Shown here one piece after another: positions 40,150-45,797 of a DNA stretch of 64,000 nt; the first letter of the stretch is position 1; each line of letters begins with the position of its first letter. The translations under genes and the position numbers were made by a program. This stretch comes from Escherichia coli (GTDB lineage Bacteria > Pseudomonadota > Gammaproteobacteria > Enterobacterales > Enterobacteriaceae): NCBI RefSeq assembly GCF_003790525.1, contig NZ_CP033635.1; one strand, given 5' to 3'. A model generated the notes under the pieces. The model worked only from the letters and a program-made list of their open reading frames with translations, was not told the DNA's origin and searched no databases.

Positions 40150-41040
40150 ATGGATGCAAAACAAACGCGGCAGGGCGTATTACTCGCTCTTGCCGCTTAT
40201 TTTATTTGGGGTATTGCGCCAGCGTACTTCAAGCTGATTTACTACGTGCCCGCCGATGAGATCCTGACGCATCGCGTGATCTGGTCGTTTTTCTTTATGG
40301 TGGTGCTGATGAGCATTTGCCGCCAGTGGTCCTATTTAAAAACGCTGATTCAGACGCCACAGAAAATTTTTATGCTGGCAGTCTCTGCCGTGCTGATTGG
40401 TGGCAACTGGCTACTGTTTATCTGGGCGGTGAACAATCACCATATGCTGGAAGCGAGCCTTGGTTACTTTATTAACCCACTGGTGAACATTGTGCTGGGG
40501 ATGATTTTCCTCGGCGAGCGATTCCGCCGGATGCAATGGCTGGCGGTGATTCTGGCGATATGTGGCGTGTTGGTTCAGTTGTGGACTTTTGGTTCACTGC
40601 CGATTATCGCGCTGGGGCTGGCGTTTAGTTTTGCCTTCTACGGCCTGGTACGCAAGAAGATTGCTGTTGAAGCGCAAACCGGCATGTTAATCGAAACTAT
40701 GTGGTTGCTGCCCGTGGCGGCGATTTACCTGTTTGCTATTGCCGACAGCTCAACCAGCCATATGGGGCAAAACCCGATGTCGCTGAATTTACTGCTGATC
40801 GCCGCCGGTATTGTCACTACCGTACCGCTGTTGTGTTTTACTGCGGCTGCGACACGCCTGCGTCTCTCAACGTTAGGCTTTTTTCAGTACATTGGCCCGA
40901 CGCTGATGTTCCTGCTGGCTGTGACGTTTTATGGTGAAAAACCGGGTGCCGATAAGATGGTAACCTTCGCCTTTATTTGGGTGGCGCTGGCAATTTTTGT
41001 GATGGATGCGATTTATACGCAGCGTAGAACGTCCAAATAA
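40150..41040 (+). CDS. rarD: DMT-superfamily transporter RarD
   Basis: 296 aa, 10 TM helices, MDAKQTRQGVLLALAAYFIWGIAPAYFK... Confidence 0.9.
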   Translation: MDAKQTRQGVLLALAAYFIWGIAPAYFKLIYYVPADEILTHRVIWSFFFMVVLMSICRQWSYLKTLIQTPQKIFMLAVSAVLIGGNWLLFIWAVNNHHMLEASLGYFINPLVNIVLGMIFLGERFRRMQWLAVILAICGVLVQLWTFGSLPIIALGLAFSFAFYGLVRKKIAVEAQTGMLIETMWLLPVAAIYLFAIADSSTSHMGQNPMSLNLLLIAAGIVTTVPLLCFTAAATRLRLSTLGFFQYIGPTLMFLLAVTFYGEKPGADKMVTFAFIWVALAIFVMDAIYTQRRTSK

Positions 41041-41349
41041 AAAATAAATATATTCTGAAAAAATATGCCGACTCTTGCATGAGAGTGGGCATATTGCCAT
41101 GCTGACAGGAGACTCACATAAGGAAAGGCAGAATTTCCAGACGTCGTTGTATATTTTCATTTGCTTTAATAAATTTCATTTTTGGTAAATTCAGCATTAT
41201 GTTATTAGCGATGAGCAAGACCAATCATTAACCAAGTTCTCTTCAGAATGTAATGAAAAATGTGAAGTGCATTTCTTTTTTAAAATTTTTTACCCTATTA
41301 TTTCTTATCAAATTAACATTGCCCTTAATTATAAGAAAGGAGAATATAA

Positions 41350-42198
41350 ATGAACAACATATTAGGCTCATCAATTAATATGCCCTGTACACTTTTCGAA
41401 ACTATTACTTTATTCGATGATTTTTCTGCTGATGATATGCAGTATGGGGATATGGAAGAACAAGATTTTCTCTCACTCGGCTTAAGCGACATCTCTGCAA
41501 AAGTTGATCCTTACCGCCTCATTAAATACCATTTTCCTGGGCCGAATTCTACTTATGGTGCTTTTAGTGTTCCAACTTCTGGAACAAAAATATCACAAAG
41601 TGAATGTATTGATATTTTATTTGCAGAAATGAAAGATCTGGCAAAAATGTTTTCCTTTTTTGGACAATACAAAACACTCATCCAGGATCTGATTGATCAT
41701 TTTAGATATGGAAATGGCAACAGTTTCCATAGCCAGGAATTGAACTTATCTTTTCATGAACGAATAAACAAATATGATTATAATAGCCCAATACGTGTAA
41801 TCAAAGAATGTATCGAAAATGATATTTCTTCAACACCTACGATAGGATACCGGCCTCTTCTCCTACAAAAGATTAAGACCGAATTACTTTCATCAAGACT
41901 AAATAAATTCAATGATTTTAAAGATAATTTTAATGGCATGGGAATCAGCATTCATGATATCTCAGCTCAAAAAATATCTCTTTTAAATTTTCAAAAATAT
42001 CCTATGGGCTGGAGCGCTACCATTCATTTCATAGCACAAGACCACTTTGGTTTGGATGTGACTGATATAAAAAACAAGATTTACAACAAGTATAGATTTT
42101 TTCGCATATGGTTCTTTTTACAACGGCATAAAGACTTTGCTTTCAAACCTTTTTTCACCAATTTTAACACTATCGAAAGAATCGAAAATTATCTATGA
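41350..42198 (+). CDS. Hypothetical protein, 282 aa, acidic, no signal peptide or TM segment; function unknown (toxin/effector-like candidate)
   Basis: Long ORF in AT-rich DNA with strong RBS (agaaaggagaatataaATG); stop overlaps the next start (ATGA); I recognise no family motif with confidence. Confidence 0.55.
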   Translation: MNNILGSSINMPCTLFETITLFDDFSADDMQYGDMEEQDFLSLGLSDISAKVDPYRLIKYHFPGPNSTYGAFSVPTSGTKISQSECIDILFAEMKDLAKMFSFFGQYKTLIQDLIDHFRYGNGNSFHSQELNLSFHERINKYDYNSPIRVIKECIENDISSTPTIGYRPLLLQKIKTELLSSRLNKFNDFKDNFNGMGISIHDISAQKISLLNFQKYPMGWSATIHFIAQDHFGLDVTDIKNKIYNKYRFFRIWFFLQRHKDFAFKPFFTNFNTIERIENYL

Positions 42199-42692
42199 AA
42201 AGAAAACTCCAGAAAATTATATTATATTTATTTCTTCTATGCTGCATCTATAATTTATGGACATTGCGTCCTGTACAGATTTTGTATACATACTCTGATG
42301 CTGGCAATTCAGTCTTTCTGGTCGTTGATCATCTGCCATGGACTGACAGCGATAAAATAAATTGGTATCTGAAGCATCAGAATGAAATTAAAAATCAACA
42401 CCCCCTACCAGAAGGTAGTTGGCATACCTGGTATGTTATTGATATCGGTAATGGCTTCACTGACTATAAAAAATATATCGAAGGGCCGTATGAAGATCTC
42501 TACTGTTTCCCGACGATTAAGAGCAATGATAATTGCATCGTAAAAAACTATTTAATGGTTATTAATGAATATCCTTACCGTAATACTCATTTTTTTATTG
42601 CTGATAACAATGAGTATCAACTAACCCAGGAAAATAAGATAGAGCGAGTGTTCAACCCGCATGACTTTGAAAAAGACAATTTTCAGCAATAA
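42195..42692 (+). CDS. Hypothetical membrane-anchored protein, 165 aa, single N-terminal TM helix plus Trp/Tyr-rich soluble domain (immunity-like candidate)
   Basis: N-terminal KIILYLFLLCCIYNLWTL hydrophobic segment; ATGA coupling to the upstream ORF. Confidence 0.55.
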   Translation: MKRKLQKIILYLFLLCCIYNLWTLRPVQILYTYSDAGNSVFLVVDHLPWTDSDKINWYLKHQNEIKNQHPLPEGSWHTWYVIDIGNGFTDYKKYIEGPYEDLYCFPTIKSNDNCIVKNYLMVINEYPYRNTHFFIADNNEYQLTQENKIERVFNPHDFEKDNFQQ

Positions 42693-42720
42693 GCCGGATA
42701 AAGAACAATCTTTACCCGGC
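42693..42720. terminator. Hairpin (GCCGGATAAAGA-ACAA-TCTTTACCCGGC) between the cassette and the convergent corA 3' end; probable bidirectional terminator
   Basis: 12-bp stem with one mismatch, followed by a T-rich tract. Confidence 0.5.
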
Positions 42721-42727
42721 ATTTATA

Positions 42728-43678
42728 TTACAACCAGTTCTTCCGCTTAAAGTACAGATACGGTGCCAGGCCCGCGAGGATCATAAAGATAATCGCGCCA
42801 GGGTAGCCGAAGCTCCACTTCAGTTCCGGCATAAACTCAAAGTTCATCCCGTAGCTGGAAGCGACCAGCGTCGGTGGCAGGAACACCACGGATACCACCG
42901 AGAAGATTTTGATGATGCGGTTCTGCTCGATATTGATAAAGCCCATCGCCGCCTGCATCAGGAAGTTCACCTTCTGGAACAGGGATTCGTTATGCGGCAG
43001 CAGGGATTCGATATCTCGCAGGATTTCACGCGCCTGCTCCAGTTGCCCACCCGGTAAGCGTGCTTTACGTACCAGGAAGTTGAGCGCGCGCTGGGTATCC
43101 ATCAGACACAGGCGAACTTTCCAGCCGATATCTTCCAGTTCCGCCAGCGTGGAGAGCGCCTCGTCGTACTCATCGCCCTGATGCCCTTCCATAATTACCC
43201 GGCTCAACTGCTCCAGGTCACTGTAGATATTTTCAATTTCATCCGCCAACTGTTCGATTTTGGTTTCGAACAGATCCAGCAACAGCTCGTAGGCGTTACC
43301 GTCCACCATCGACTGGCTACGGGCACGCATACGATACAGACGAAAAGCGGGCAGTTCACGCTCACGCAGAGTAAACAGACGACCATCACGAATGGTAAAT
43401 GCCACAGTGGAGTTACCGGCGTGATCTTCCGCATCTTCAAAGAAGAAGAAGGAGTGAATATGCAGGCCGTCATCGTCTTCAAAGAAACGTGCCGATGCTT
43501 CGATGTCTTCCAGTTCCGGGCGGGTTGCCAGGCTCTGGCCAAGTTCAGATTGTACGCGCAGTCGCTCGTCGTCGTCCGGTTCGACAAGATCAATCCATAC
43601 TGCATTTACAAGGGGTTGTGACTCTTCGACTTCCAGCCGGGTCAGTCGGTTATTTTCCAGTTGAAATGCGCTCAGCAT
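42728..43678 (-). CDS. corA: Mg2+/Co2+ transport protein CorA
   Basis: [22 protein letters not shown]... and C-terminal [11 protein letters not shown] (GMN motif); start chosen at MLSAFQ. Confidence 0.95.
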
Positions 43679-44047
43679 GACCGGGACTCCCAATGCTTAA
43701 AATATCGGACAGTTCGGTGGGCACACAGAAACAAATTGGGTTTCAGACCATTAAACAGCCTGACTCAGCGCGACGGGAAAAATTGAGGTCGCTGACAACC
43801 GCTAAGGCTATCAGCAAAAAGGGATAGCCTTAGGAGTTGATCCTGGATGACAGGATAGTGAGCCAGTATCTACTGGGTGTGTCCAAGGCGAATGTCCTCT
43901 TAGAGTGATCGTGCGCGCATGTTACGCCAGCAAAATTTTGCCGTCAACACGCAACAGAACACCACAGAACAATAGTTGAACTTCGCGCTTTTTGGTACTC
44001 GTCAAGGTCGCTAACAGGATAAAAAAATCCCACATCCAGGACCTATA

Positions 44048-44812
44048 ATGGCGCATCGGCTACTCATTGGTAAAGGAATGATCACCTTGAATCTCAAACG
44101 GATTTTTCTCACCTTCACCTTACTTCCCTTGTTTGCTGTTGCCGCTGATGATTGCGCACTCTCAGATCCGACGCTGACCGTACAGGCGTATACCGTTAAT
44201 CCTCAAACAGAGCGGGTGAAAATGTACTGGCAAAAAGCCAATGGCGAAGCGTGGGGAACGTTACATGCTCTGCTGGCGGATATGAATAGTCAGGGTCAGG
44301 TGCAGATGGCGATGAACGGCGGCATCTATGATGAAAGCTATGCGCCGCTCGGTTTGTACATCGAAAACGGTCAGCAGAAGGTGGCGTTAAATCTCGCTTC
44401 AGGTGAAGGGAATTTCTTTATTCGTCCTGGCGGCGTGTTTTATGTCGCGGGAGATAAAGTCGGCATCGTTCGTCTGGATGCCTTTAAAACCAGTAAAGAG
44501 ATTCAGTTTGCAGTGCAGTCAGGGCCAATGTTATTAGAAAACGGCGTAATTAATCCACGCATTCACCCGAATGTTGCCTCGCGTAAAATTCGTAACGGTG
44601 TAGGGATTAATAAACAAGGGAACGCCGTGTTTTTGTTGAGCCAGCAGGCGACAAATTTTTATGATTTTGCCTGCTATGCCAAAGCGAAACTGAACGTTGA
44701 GCAGCTGCTTTATCTTGATGGCACAATTTCACATATGTATATGAAAGGCTGGGCAATCCCGTGGCAACACTATCCTTTTGTTACCATGATTTCCGTCGAG
44801 TGGAAAGGTTAA
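44048..44812 (+). CDS. yigE: DUF2233-family periplasmic protein YigE
   Basis: 254 aa with N-terminal signal-like segment; matches my recollection of YigE. Confidence 0.8.
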   Translation: MAHRLLIGKGMITLNLKRIFLTFTLLPLFAVAADDCALSDPTLTVQAYTVNPQTERVKMYWQKANGEAWGTLHALLADMNSQGQVQMAMNGGIYDESYAPLGLYIENGQQKVALNLASGEGNFFIRPGGVFYVAGDKVGIVRLDAFKTSKEIQFAVQSGPMLLENGVINPRIHPNVASRKIRNGVGINKQGNAVFLLSQQATNFYDFACYAKAKLNVEQLLYLDGTISHMYMKGWAIPWQHYPFVTMISVEWKG

Positions 44813-44894: not shown

Positions 44895-45797
44895 ATGAAA
44901 AAAAGGCTCGCAACGTTATTTTTATTAACGTGTCTGGGATCATCATCCGCCTATGCGGATAACGCTTTGATTTTACAAACTGATTTTAGCCTGAAAGATG
45001 GTGCCGTCTCGGCGATGAAAGGGGTCGCATTCGGCGTTGACCATAATCTTAAAATCTTTGATTTAACACACGAAATTCCACCGTATAACATCTGGGAAGG
45101 CGCTTATCGCCTGTATCAGACTGCCAGTTACTGGCCGCAAGGTTCGGTGTTTGTTAGCGTGGTCGATCCGGGCGTAGGCACTGACCGTAAATCGGTAGTG
45201 CTGAAAACCAAAAACGGTCAATACTTCGTTTCACCAGATAACGGTACGCTCACTTTGGTGGCACAAACTCTGGGTATTGATAGCGTCCGAGAAATCGACG
45301 AAAAAGCTAACCGCCTGAAAGGTTCTGAAAAGTCATATACCTTCCACGGTCGTGACGTGTATGCCTACACCGGTGCGCGTCTGGCTTCCGGGGCGATTAC
45401 GTTCGAACAGGTGGGGCCAGAGCTTCCTGCAAAAGTTGTCGAACTTTCTTATCAGAAAGCAAAAGCAACAAAAGGTGAAGTGAAGGGCAATATCCCGATT
45501 CTCGATATTCAGTACGGCAACGTCTGGAGCAATATCAGCGACGAGTTGCTGAATCAGGCAGGAATCAAACTCAACGACACGTTGTGTGTGACCATTTCCG
45601 AAGGTTCCCAGCAAAAATACGCAGGGAAAATGCCATATGTCGCAAGCTTCGGCGATGTGCCGGAAGGCCAGCCGATGGTGTATCTGAACAGCTTATTGAA
45701 TGTTTCCGTGGCGCTGAATATGGATAATTTTGCGCAGAAACATCAGGTTGCGTCTGGTGCTGACTGGAATATTGATGTGAAGAAGTGCGCTAAGTAA
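44895..45797 (+). CDS. SAM hydrolase / SAM-hydroxide adenosyltransferase-like protein (DUF62 fold) with N-terminal signal peptide
   Basis: Signal peptide MKKRLATLFLLTCLGSSSAYA; VFVSVVDPGVGTDR matches the DPGVGT motif of the fluorinase/chlorinase/SAM-hydrolase family. Confidence 0.6.
   Translation: MKKRLATLFLLTCLGSSSAYADNALILQTDFSLKDGAVSAMKGVAFGVDHNLKIFDLTHEIPPYNIWEGAYRLYQTASYWPQGSVFVSVVDPGVGTDRKSVVLKTKNGQYFVSPDNGTLTLVAQTLGIDSVREIDEKANRLKGSEKSYTFHGRDVYAYTGARLASGAITFEQVGPELPAKVVELSYQKAKATKGEVKGNIPILDIQYGNVWSNISDELLNQAGIKLNDTLCVTISEGSQQKYAGKMPYVASFGDVPEGQPMVYLNSLLNVSVALNMDNFAQKHQVASGADWNIDVKKCAK

Follow-up and report, generated by a model that had tools for sequence, protein, structure and literature searches.

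The 369 bp that separate corA from the divergent gene yigE almost certainly hold a sigma-70 corA promoter and a 232-nt leader RNA that works as a translation-coupled, Rho-dependent transcription attenuator. The element has been described and annotated before: it is the corA leader with its upstream open reading frame (uORF) corL (ysgD), characterised in Salmonella in 2015-2017 and in E. coli in 2024. Kriner and Groisman (J Mol Biol, 2015) is reportedly the founding paper on this leader, and Lim et al. in 2012 are said to have described RNase III cleavage of corA mRNA. The first-pass annotation had suggested that the interval could hold the equivalent of the Salmonella corA leader, a long and structured RNA with a small ORF under Rho control. 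That equivalent is present, as indicated by the identity to MG1655, the published E. coli experiments and the ysgD annotation, and the suggestion was too cautious, as the E. coli element itself had already been characterised. Our own analysis, carried out on a window of 64,000 nucleotides of E. coli DNA to which all positions refer, provides the coordinates, the identity to MG1655, the conservation of corL and the alternative pairings, for which it also documents conservation and covariation. For Rho dependence, the response to Mg2+, the effects of corL start mutants and the pause and termination sites we rely on the literature on the identical sequence or on the Salmonella orthologue (PMC11552253, PMC5314796).

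Measured from the ORF ends, the gap between the divergent genes is 369 bp (43679-44047), in agreement with the earlier figure of about 370 bp. It is 100% identical to E. coli K-12 MG1655 by pairwise alignment (of 401 aligned nt only one differs, and it belongs to yigE), and 5425 of 5426 complete E. coli genomes match a query spanning 43600-44120, all matching records having at least 95% identity. RefSeq annotates a 57-nt gene inside the interval, ysgD ('protein YsgD' or 'YsgD/CorL family protein'). The earlier statement that the gap contains no convincing ORF is correct at the usual size thresholds (at least 20 aa); the ORF list, with a minimum of 20 aa, has only short frames of 20-44 aa on both strands. 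It overlooked the 18-codon corL, which is missing from that list because its length and TTG start put it below threshold. Outside the element, the strain carries extra genes relative to MG1655 downstream of corA and between yigE and uvrD. A corA 3' remnant past the downstream insertion, as annotated in FDAARGOS_497, is absent from the window, and no direct repeats were found flanking the insertion downstream of corA.

We fetched 80 corA loci, one genome per species, and aligned 71 of them (282 nt upstream plus 12 nt of coding sequence; 69 distinct sequences), spanning Escherichia, Yersinia, Serratia, Pectobacterium, Dickeya, Erwinia, Pantoea, Hafnia and Edwardsiella. Across these 71 Enterobacterales loci there is hardly any variation in the promoter, the corL start or the stem sequences. 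Conservation in other genera starts about 10 nt before the corA -35 hexamer, and the 100 bp beyond it at 43948-44047 are Escherichia-specific and fall outside the conserved corA element. Consistent with this boundary, only the three Escherichia loci have yigE as the next gene upstream; in the other genera that place is taken by uvrD, whose 3' end is about 110 bp upstream of the corA -35. Salmonella is likewise not known to have yigE between uvrD and corA, which fits the other genera seen. The 100 bp are presumably the promoter and 5' UTR of yigE; the promoter scan detected no promoter-like site for that gene. The whole interval had initially been described as a long untranslated region upstream of corA; 232 bp of leader and about 37 bp of core promoter belong to corA control but the 100 bp nearest yigE do not, so that a corA-specific 269 bp is now separated from the Escherichia-specific part. 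The features of the interval are collected in Table 1.

Table 1. Features of the corA-yigE interval in window coordinates. Leader position p corresponds to window position 43911 minus p.
Feature	Position	Strand	Description and basis
yigE	44048..44812	+	254 aa, phosphodiester glycosidase / NAGPA family (Pfam PF09992, E = 9.8e-19); ATG at 44048; divergent neighbour; RefSeq annotation
Gap between corA -35 and yigE	43948..44047		100 bp; presumably yigE promoter and 5' UTR
corA -35 hexamer	43942..43947	-	TTGACG; promoter scan; GTTGACG conserved in Enterobacteriaceae
corA -10 hexamer	43919..43924	-	TAACAT; promoter scan; 17-bp spacer from -35
Discriminator	43911..43918	-	GCGCGCAC; 8 nt, GC-rich, between -10 and putative start G43910; read from sequence
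corA 5' leader RNA	43679..43910	-	232 nt
corL Shine-Dalgarno	43895..43900	-	AGAGGA; leader 11-16; 8 nt upstream of corL start
corL / ysgD	43830..43886	-	leader 25-81; TTG start, 18 codons (MDTPSRYWLTILSSRINS), TAA stop; RefSeq position
Stem A (OFF)	43827..43889	-	GCCUUGG (22-28) with CUAAGGC (78-84); encloses corL and occludes its start codon
Hairpin A1	43863..43876	-	inside corL; CCAGU-AGAU-ACUGG; leader 35-48 (35-39 with 44-48)
Hairpin A2	43840..43856	-	inside corL; AUCCUG-UCAUC-CAGGAU; leader 55-71 (55-60 with 66-71)
Stem-loop C (ON)	43796..43839	-	leader 72-75 and 78-88 with 99-109 and 112-115; excludes stems A and B
Stem-loop B (OFF)	43791..43815	-	GCUGAUAGCC-UUAGC-GGUUGUCAGC; leader 96-120 (96-105 with 111-120); rut left exposed
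Stem-loop D (ON)	43770..43792	-	GCGAC (119-123) with GUCGC (137-141); loop is the pyrimidine-rich CCUCAAUUUUUCCC
Stem-loop E	43744..43762	-	CAGGCU-GUUUAAU-GGUCUG; leader 149-167 (149-154 with 162-167); downstream of stem D
Putative equivalent of Salmonella rut	43738..43824	-	Salmonella 89-177, about E. coli 87-173; extent from PMC5314796
Pause motif	43722..43732	-	GUUUCUGUGUG; consensus G(-10) Y(-1) G(+1); pause U188 = 43723; motif search
Rho/NusG termination zone	43691..43701	-	in vitro U211 and G216-U220 (PMC11552253), mapped onto the window
corA	42728..43678	-	316 aa Mg2+/Co2+/Ni2+ transporter, the regulated gene; ATG at 43678, stop at 42728; ORF list and matching RefSeq records

The corA promoter is among the most constant parts of the alignment: the -10 hexamer is invariant in all 68 distinct sequences that cover it, and the discriminator is kept as GCGC[G/C]CA[C/T] in all 68 that cover it. 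We place the probable transcription start at G43910, at GATCACTC and 232 nt from the ATG, because published constructs place it there. Foreign promoters were fused directly to GATCACTCTAAGAGG in oligos oFM4 and F-pLacUV5-corA, and the PcorA-lacZ fusion covers -309 to -209 relative to the AUG, with the first 24 nt of the transcript (PMC11552253 supplement). The promoter thus appears to lie more than 200 nt upstream of corA, with the start transferred from the identical MG1655 sequence. A start close to the corA ATG with no conserved leader, which the first-pass annotation had named as the outcome that would speak against its proposal, does not describe this locus; the leader is conserved across the order.

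An invariant -10 hexamer followed by a conserved, GC-rich discriminator of 8 nt has a geometry like that of rrnB P1. The rRNA P1 promoters are under ppGpp/DksA control. If the likeness is meaningful, it predicts ppGpp/DksA (growth-rate) control of a corA promoter that is regarded as constitutive. A literature search on ppGpp control of this promoter returned no paper with corA in the title or abstract, the 'CorA' matches (e.g. corallopyronin A) being assumed to be unrelated.

Downstream of the start, corL reads TTG GAC ACA CCC AGT AGA TAC TGG CTC ACT ATC CTG TCA TCC AGG ATC AAC TCC TAA. Its 57 nt match the annotated ysgD of MG1655 and FDAARGOS_497 (WP_211180520.1 / b4799) exactly, and membership of the YsgD/CorL family is assigned by that identity, the 18-aa peptide being too short for HMM scoring. 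The first-pass annotation had proposed a search for a short conserved leader-peptide ORF, and corL is such a frame: we found it in 70 of the 71 Enterobacterales loci, always with a TTG start, and in the one stray locus an insertion shifts it beyond the extracted stretch. The GAGGA of its Shine-Dalgarno sequence is nearly invariant in the 71 species. In 65 loci corL has 18 codons and in four it has 17 or 19, while a mutated stop extends it to 25 codons in one locus. TAA is the stop in the 18-codon genes examined.

The substitution pattern within corL differs along its length. Codons 1-9 are almost invariant at the nucleotide level, synonymous third positions included, and some of these frozen synonymous sites lie outside the named stems (e.g. 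GACACA); the conserved N-terminus is MD[T/A]PSR[Y/C]WL. The commonest change, UAC to UGC (Tyr to Cys at codon 7), is found in 22 of 44 distinct genes and keeps the closing pair of hairpin A1 as U-A or U-G (40 versus 28 sequences). At residues 10-14 the amino acids change freely, one position having as many as 12 different ones, and the hairpin A2 below them covaries. This pattern suggests that selection acts less on the peptide product than on the RNA and on translation as such, which fits a cis-acting model. PIRT-seq has reported a second translated frame in the leader, CDS177, which begins with AUC at leader +2 and has 32 codons. The CDS177 frame is open across the conserved core, but it is closed by a TGA in the Shine-Dalgarno region, 11 nt before the corL start, in Serratia, Hafnia and Yersinia, and by an early stop in Dickeya. 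We have rejected it as a conserved gene on account of these stop codons, and its openness is explained by conservation of the RNA sequence.

RNA structure prediction, another of the checks proposed at first reading, indicated a structured leader: the minimum free energy (MFE) of the 235-nt leader RNA is -76.6 kcal/mol, compared with -58.5 +/- 4.9 kcal/mol for shuffles (z = -3.72; none of 200 shuffles did as well). We built the stems by hand from the sequence and the positions of published mutations. They combine into an OFF fold (A+A1+A2+B+E) and an ON fold (A1+A2+C+D+E) that are mutually exclusive, segments 78-88 and 96-120 being used by both, and isoenergetic (-42.6 and -42.8 kcal/mol), as expected of a switch. 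Also as expected for several alternative pairings, the triple-duty segments CUAAGGC, GCCUUAG and GCCUUGG are invariant. Stems C and D are present in the single-sequence MFE structure, and RNAalifold, run blind on the same alignment, returned A, A1, A2, B, part of D, and E. In the terminator scan stem B appears as a 12-pair hairpin, and the published ON-state mutant oligos alter exactly the arms of stem C (PMC11552253 supplement).

Covariation in the alignment backs both folds. For the OFF fold 96.0% of cells are paired, compared with 19.7-44.3% when partners are slid by 1-3 columns, and 8 pairs have changed on both sides (0 of 500 shuffles); for the ON fold the corresponding values are 95.1%, 19.3-39.1% and 14 pairs (0 of 500 shuffles). 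Among single elements, hairpin A1 and stem D are paired in 100% of cells, stem A in 99.2% (69 distinct sequences), stem B in 99.1%, stem C in 96.2% and stem E in 93.3%. Covariation stands out most in hairpin A2, in stems D and E and in the outer pair of stem C. Both-sided changes are found in four of the six pairs of hairpin A2, e.g. CCUG/CAGG to CCCG/CGGG and CCUA/UAGG, in four pairs of stem C, in three of the five pairs of stem D and in three of the six pairs of stem E. Many stem positions are invariant and therefore carry no covariation information, and invariance itself is not evidence. Overall these results indicate that the element is conserved well beyond Escherichia and Salmonella, reaching Yersinia, Pectobacterium, Erwinia and Edwardsiella.

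The long-range pairs of the MFE structure (5' end with 3' end; corL with 185-204) were rejected as conserved structure, as they are only 84% paired on the alignment and their counts of double-changed pairs and pair types are not above shuffles (180/500 and 251/500). One of them is an exception: the invariant CUGGCUC in corL codons 7-9 (45-51) could pair without a mismatch with GAGUCAG in the 5' flank and arm of stem E (145-151), which is invariant too, and this segment is uninformative. The pairing could be a third, long-range conformation that ties ribosome position in corL directly to stem E and hence to where Rho acts.

The alignment to the Salmonella leader that had been proposed as a check was made by published positions, and all of the mutated nucleotides are identical here. 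The correspondence comes from nucleotide identities and the positions given in PMC5314796, Salmonella being outside the 80 fetched loci. For every Salmonella nucleotide that was mutated to define the stems, the window has the same base, the offset being 2 nt before the loop of stem D and 4 nt after it; this offset changes because Salmonella has 2 extra nt in the variable stem D loop. Mutations M1 (G84 G85 C86), M1* (G24 C25 C26) and M2 (G105 C106 C107) are at offset 2 and the stem E mutations at offset 4. The M1* and M1 positions, G24-C26 and G84-C86, are those of stem A, and M2 (G105-C107), M5 and M7 fall on stem B. For stem D, Salmonella M5 (G121, G123) and M6 (C143, C145) equal G119/G121 and C139/C141 here, and for stem E, G155-U158 and G166-C169 equal 151-154 and 162-165.

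Stem B is flanked by two pyrimidine tracts, CCCUUUUU (43823-43816) and CCUCAAUUUUUCCC (43788-43775), within the region equivalent to the Salmonella rut site. Over a slightly offset span, leader 85-173, the composition is C 27%, G 22% and U 34% with 15 YC dinucleotides, only a mild bias of C over G. H-SELEX has located a Rut peak in the E. coli corA leader (PMC9499579). The predicted pause at U188, downstream of stem E, is equivalent to the major Salmonella pause U192, which is stated to fit the elemental pause consensus (PMC5314796), and the exact pause 11-mer is present in 37 distinct sequences. The pause site is preceded, at a distance of 5 nt, by the end of a conserved GAAAC/GUUUC hairpin whose loop measures 4-31 nt. 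The mapped termination zone lies directly upstream of the corA Shine-Dalgarno sequence GGGAG (43691-43687) and overlaps its start; the GCAUU run is 215-219 here, so this mapping is good to within 1 nt of the published numbering. At U211 and G216-U220, Rho/NusG lifted in vitro termination from 24% to 55%, and rho R66S cells had more RNA polymerase on the corA ORF by ChIP-qPCR, with a termination score of 3.3 (PMC11552253). Published work with the identical sequence suggests that the window carries a functional rut site and that Rho would terminate transcription before corA.

Vezina Bedard et al. (2024, RNA Biol; PMC11552253) worked on the MG1655 leader itself. Expression of corA dropped between 20 and 50 uM Mg2+; the corA promoter alone was unresponsive, and the 5' upstream region gave the Mg2+ response even under a tet promoter, making it both necessary and sufficient for regulation under a foreign promoter (PMC11552253). 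Mutants locked in the OFF or ON state behaved as predicted, and changing the corL start from UUG to AGG raised corA expression while a change to AUG lowered it (PMC11552253). Mg2+ regulation was 3.3-fold and fell only to 2.4-fold with the rho R66S mutation, and 1.3-fold regulation was left in the corL-AGG mutant (PMC11552253), suggesting that Rho and corL translation are not all of the control. In the Salmonella model, stems A+B and C+D are exclusive, rut is accessible when B forms, translation of corL shifts the RNA towards B, and stem-loop E controls where Rho acts, with rut at 89-177 and major pauses at U192 and U240 (PMC5314796). In a 2025 review, corA is counted as an established Rho riboregulator for both Salmonella and E. 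coli.

Taken with the pairings described above, this work suggests the following course of events. Transcription would start at G43910 and corL would be translated first, from its AGAGGA site and UUG start through 18 codons. Higher intracellular Mg2+ would favour efficient corL translation, so that CUAAGGCUAUC is blocked from pairing with GAUAGCCUUAG. Stem-loop B could then form, leaving the flanking pyrimidine-rich tracts single-stranded as a rut site. Rho would load there, catch RNA polymerase at pauses and terminate transcription at about +211 to +220, before the corA ribosome-binding site, turning corA off. Poor or stalled corL translation would instead allow the long stem C together with stem D, burying the rut tracts and reducing downstream pausing, so that polymerase continues into corA and the gene is switched on. 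Stem-loop E is expected in both states and would set where Rho can act. Mg2+ may be sensed through corL translation or through direct folding of the RNA.

The second of these modes is the core of one alternative reading, in which the leader senses Mg2+ directly, as a riboswitch like the mgtA 'Mg sensor', the metal itself moves the RNA from one fold to the other and corL translation is secondary. Its appeal lies in a structural likeness, stressed by the authors, to the mgtA 5' region with its uORF set in a three-way junction, in the residual Mg2+ regulation of the corL-AGG mutant and in the authors having left direct sensing open (PMC11552253). The strong shifts of corA expression in both directions upon corL start-codon changes (PMC11552253) argue against it, however, as does a cmscan of 43400-44300 against all 4227 Rfam families at E <= 10, which gave no Mg sensor or riboswitch match. 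That search yielded four chance-level matches only (mir-76, AaHKsRNA54, tracrRNA and sR53; none is RF01056), and we regard a riboswitch of this kind as unlikely, although direct sensing may contribute to the control. The same search found no Rfam family for the corA leader, and automated RNA annotation will therefore keep missing the element.

Hardly any credence can be given to an intrinsic-terminator attenuator of the trp/his leader type, in which stem-loop B and a U-rich tract terminate without Rho. The terminator scan does flag stem B (12 pairs, loop of 5) followed by CCTCAATTTT, and about 24% of transcription terminated in vitro without Rho (PMC11552253). The U run, however, starts 7 nt past stem B and is interrupted, the tract varies in length and sequence across species, with the T run lost in e.g. 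Kosakonia and Serratia, and the terminated products end at +211 to +220, about 85 nt downstream, rather than at about +130 (PMC11552253). We have rejected stem B as an intrinsic terminator on the grounds that the U run is 7 nt off and unconserved and that termination occurs about 85 nt downstream, and the increase in termination brought by Rho/NusG also counts against this explanation. It is very improbable, too, that YsgD/CorL is mainly a trans-acting small protein whose position in the leader is incidental. In favour of such a role, tagged YsgD was detectable by immunoblot in stationary phase (bioRxiv 10.1101/511675), its translation was detected by ribosome profiling with tagging and confirmed by PIRT-seq, with the same ORF in the PIRT-seq supplement, and its N-terminal motif is conserved. 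Against it, residues 10-14 are free to vary while hairpin A2 covaries, codons 1-9 are frozen synonymously, the Tyr-to-Cys change is radical for a peptide yet preserves a U-A/U-G pair, and start-codon strength alone tunes corA in cis (PMC11552253). The attenuator controlled by corL translation and Rho remains our reading of the interval, no observation speaks against that identification, and exact window coordinates are now given for every published part of it. There is a small chance that the published A-E model misses some constraint, candidates being the 45-51/145-151 helix, the rrnB P1-like promoter, the frozen corL codons 1-9 and CDS177.

Compared with known systems, the element does not differ from the corA/corL region of E. 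coli K-12 (PMC11552253), sharing its sequence, promoter, start, UUG corL, ON and OFF stems and termination zone. The Salmonella enterica corA leader has the same corL, the same opposition of A+B and C+D, stem E, rut flanking B and a consensus pause (PMC5314796). The mgtA leader with mgtL (RF01056) is alike in its three-way-junction uORF, two exclusive folds and Mg2+-dependent uORF translation, and in Salmonella its outcome is Rho-dependent, as in the corA leader. The corA leader nevertheless has no detectable sequence or structure homology to it (no Rfam match at E <= 10), its promoter is not controlled by PhoP, and corL contains one proline, one aspartate and no glutamate, in contrast to the proline- and acidic-rich mgtL. 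In tnaC-tnaA and other uORF-based Rho attenuators, as in the corA leader, translation of a leader peptide decides the access of Rho to rut. While the stalled ribosome shields rut directly in tna, the ribosome in the corA leader acts indirectly, by selecting between RNA folds.

The corA leader (the 232-nt 5' RNA) is preceded by a promoter whose TAACAT hexamer is unchanged in 68 of 68 distinct sequences, and the GC-rich 8-nt discriminator that follows it, GCGC[G/C]CA[C/T], is conserved across Enterobacterales. This geometry is similar to that of rrnB P1, which hints that the corA promoter, described as constitutive, may be sensitive to ppGpp/DksA. A literature search for ppGpp control of the corA promoter found nothing relevant.

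Within the leader, a GAAAC/GUUUC hairpin is present in 90-97% of sequences with a loop of 4 to 31 nt, and genera outside Enterobacteriaceae carry an insertion of 22-31 nt exactly at this loop. The hairpin has G167 in common with stem-loop E, and its 3' end lies 5 nt ahead of the consensus pause at U188. In addition, two invariant segments, CUGGCUC and GAGUCAG, are perfectly complementary, suggesting a candidate long-range pairing that would compete with both stem-loop E and hairpin A1, which lies inside the corL uORF. Since neither segment varies, covariation is uninformative on their pairing.

PIRT-seq (PMC12350097) has reported that another frame, CDS177, which overlaps corL, is translated as well. 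Most of the species compared keep this frame open; in Serratia, Hafnia and Yersinia it is closed by a stop 11 nt before the corL start, and in Dickeya it is truncated, so that by this comparison CDS177 does not appear to be conserved as a gene.

Features of the corA leader and neighbouring genes in the window
Feature	Coordinates	Strand	Basis or remark
corA -10 TAACAT and discriminator	43911-43924	-	conserved across Enterobacterales
GAAAC/GUUUC hairpin (leader 167-171 with 179-183)	43744-43728	-	alignment
CUGGCUC (leader 45-51, corL codons 7-9)	43866-43860	-	invariant
GAGUCAG (leader 145-151, stem E 5' flank plus arm)	43766-43760	-	invariant
CDS177 (32 codons, from AUC at leader +2 to the UGA in stem B)	43909-43811	-	PIRT-seq (PMC12350097)
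DUF3289 gene (annotated YPO3983 family)	41350-42198	+	convergent with corA, in low-GC block
DUF943 gene	42195-42692	+	convergent with corA, in low-GC block
SAM_HAT_N + SAM_HAT_C gene, 300 aa (SAM hydroxide adenosyltransferase / SAM hydrolase family)	44895-45797	+	between yigE and uvrD

Only in Escherichia does yigE lie between uvrD and corA (upstream flanks of loci L006-L082; window part 43948-44047); in Enterobacter, Citrobacter, Klebsiella, Kluyvera, Atlantibacter and Superficieibacter, the uvrD stop precedes the corA -35 by ~110 bp. In E. coli FDAARGOS_497, the strain best matching the leader, an IS4 insertion splits yigE (L001 871-3073, NZ_CP033850.1), whereas the gene is intact in the window. 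Directly past the corA stop is a low-GC block (41000-42720; 28-37% versus ~52% in the flanks) holding the DUF3289 and DUF943 genes, which overlap each other. Neither flanking direct repeats nor a corA 3' remnant near this block was found in the window. FDAARGOS_497 also carries the DUF3289 and DUF943 pair, while in MG1655 yigF directly follows corA in its place. The yigE-uvrD gap contains no gene in MG1655, in contrast to the SAM_HAT gene of the window.
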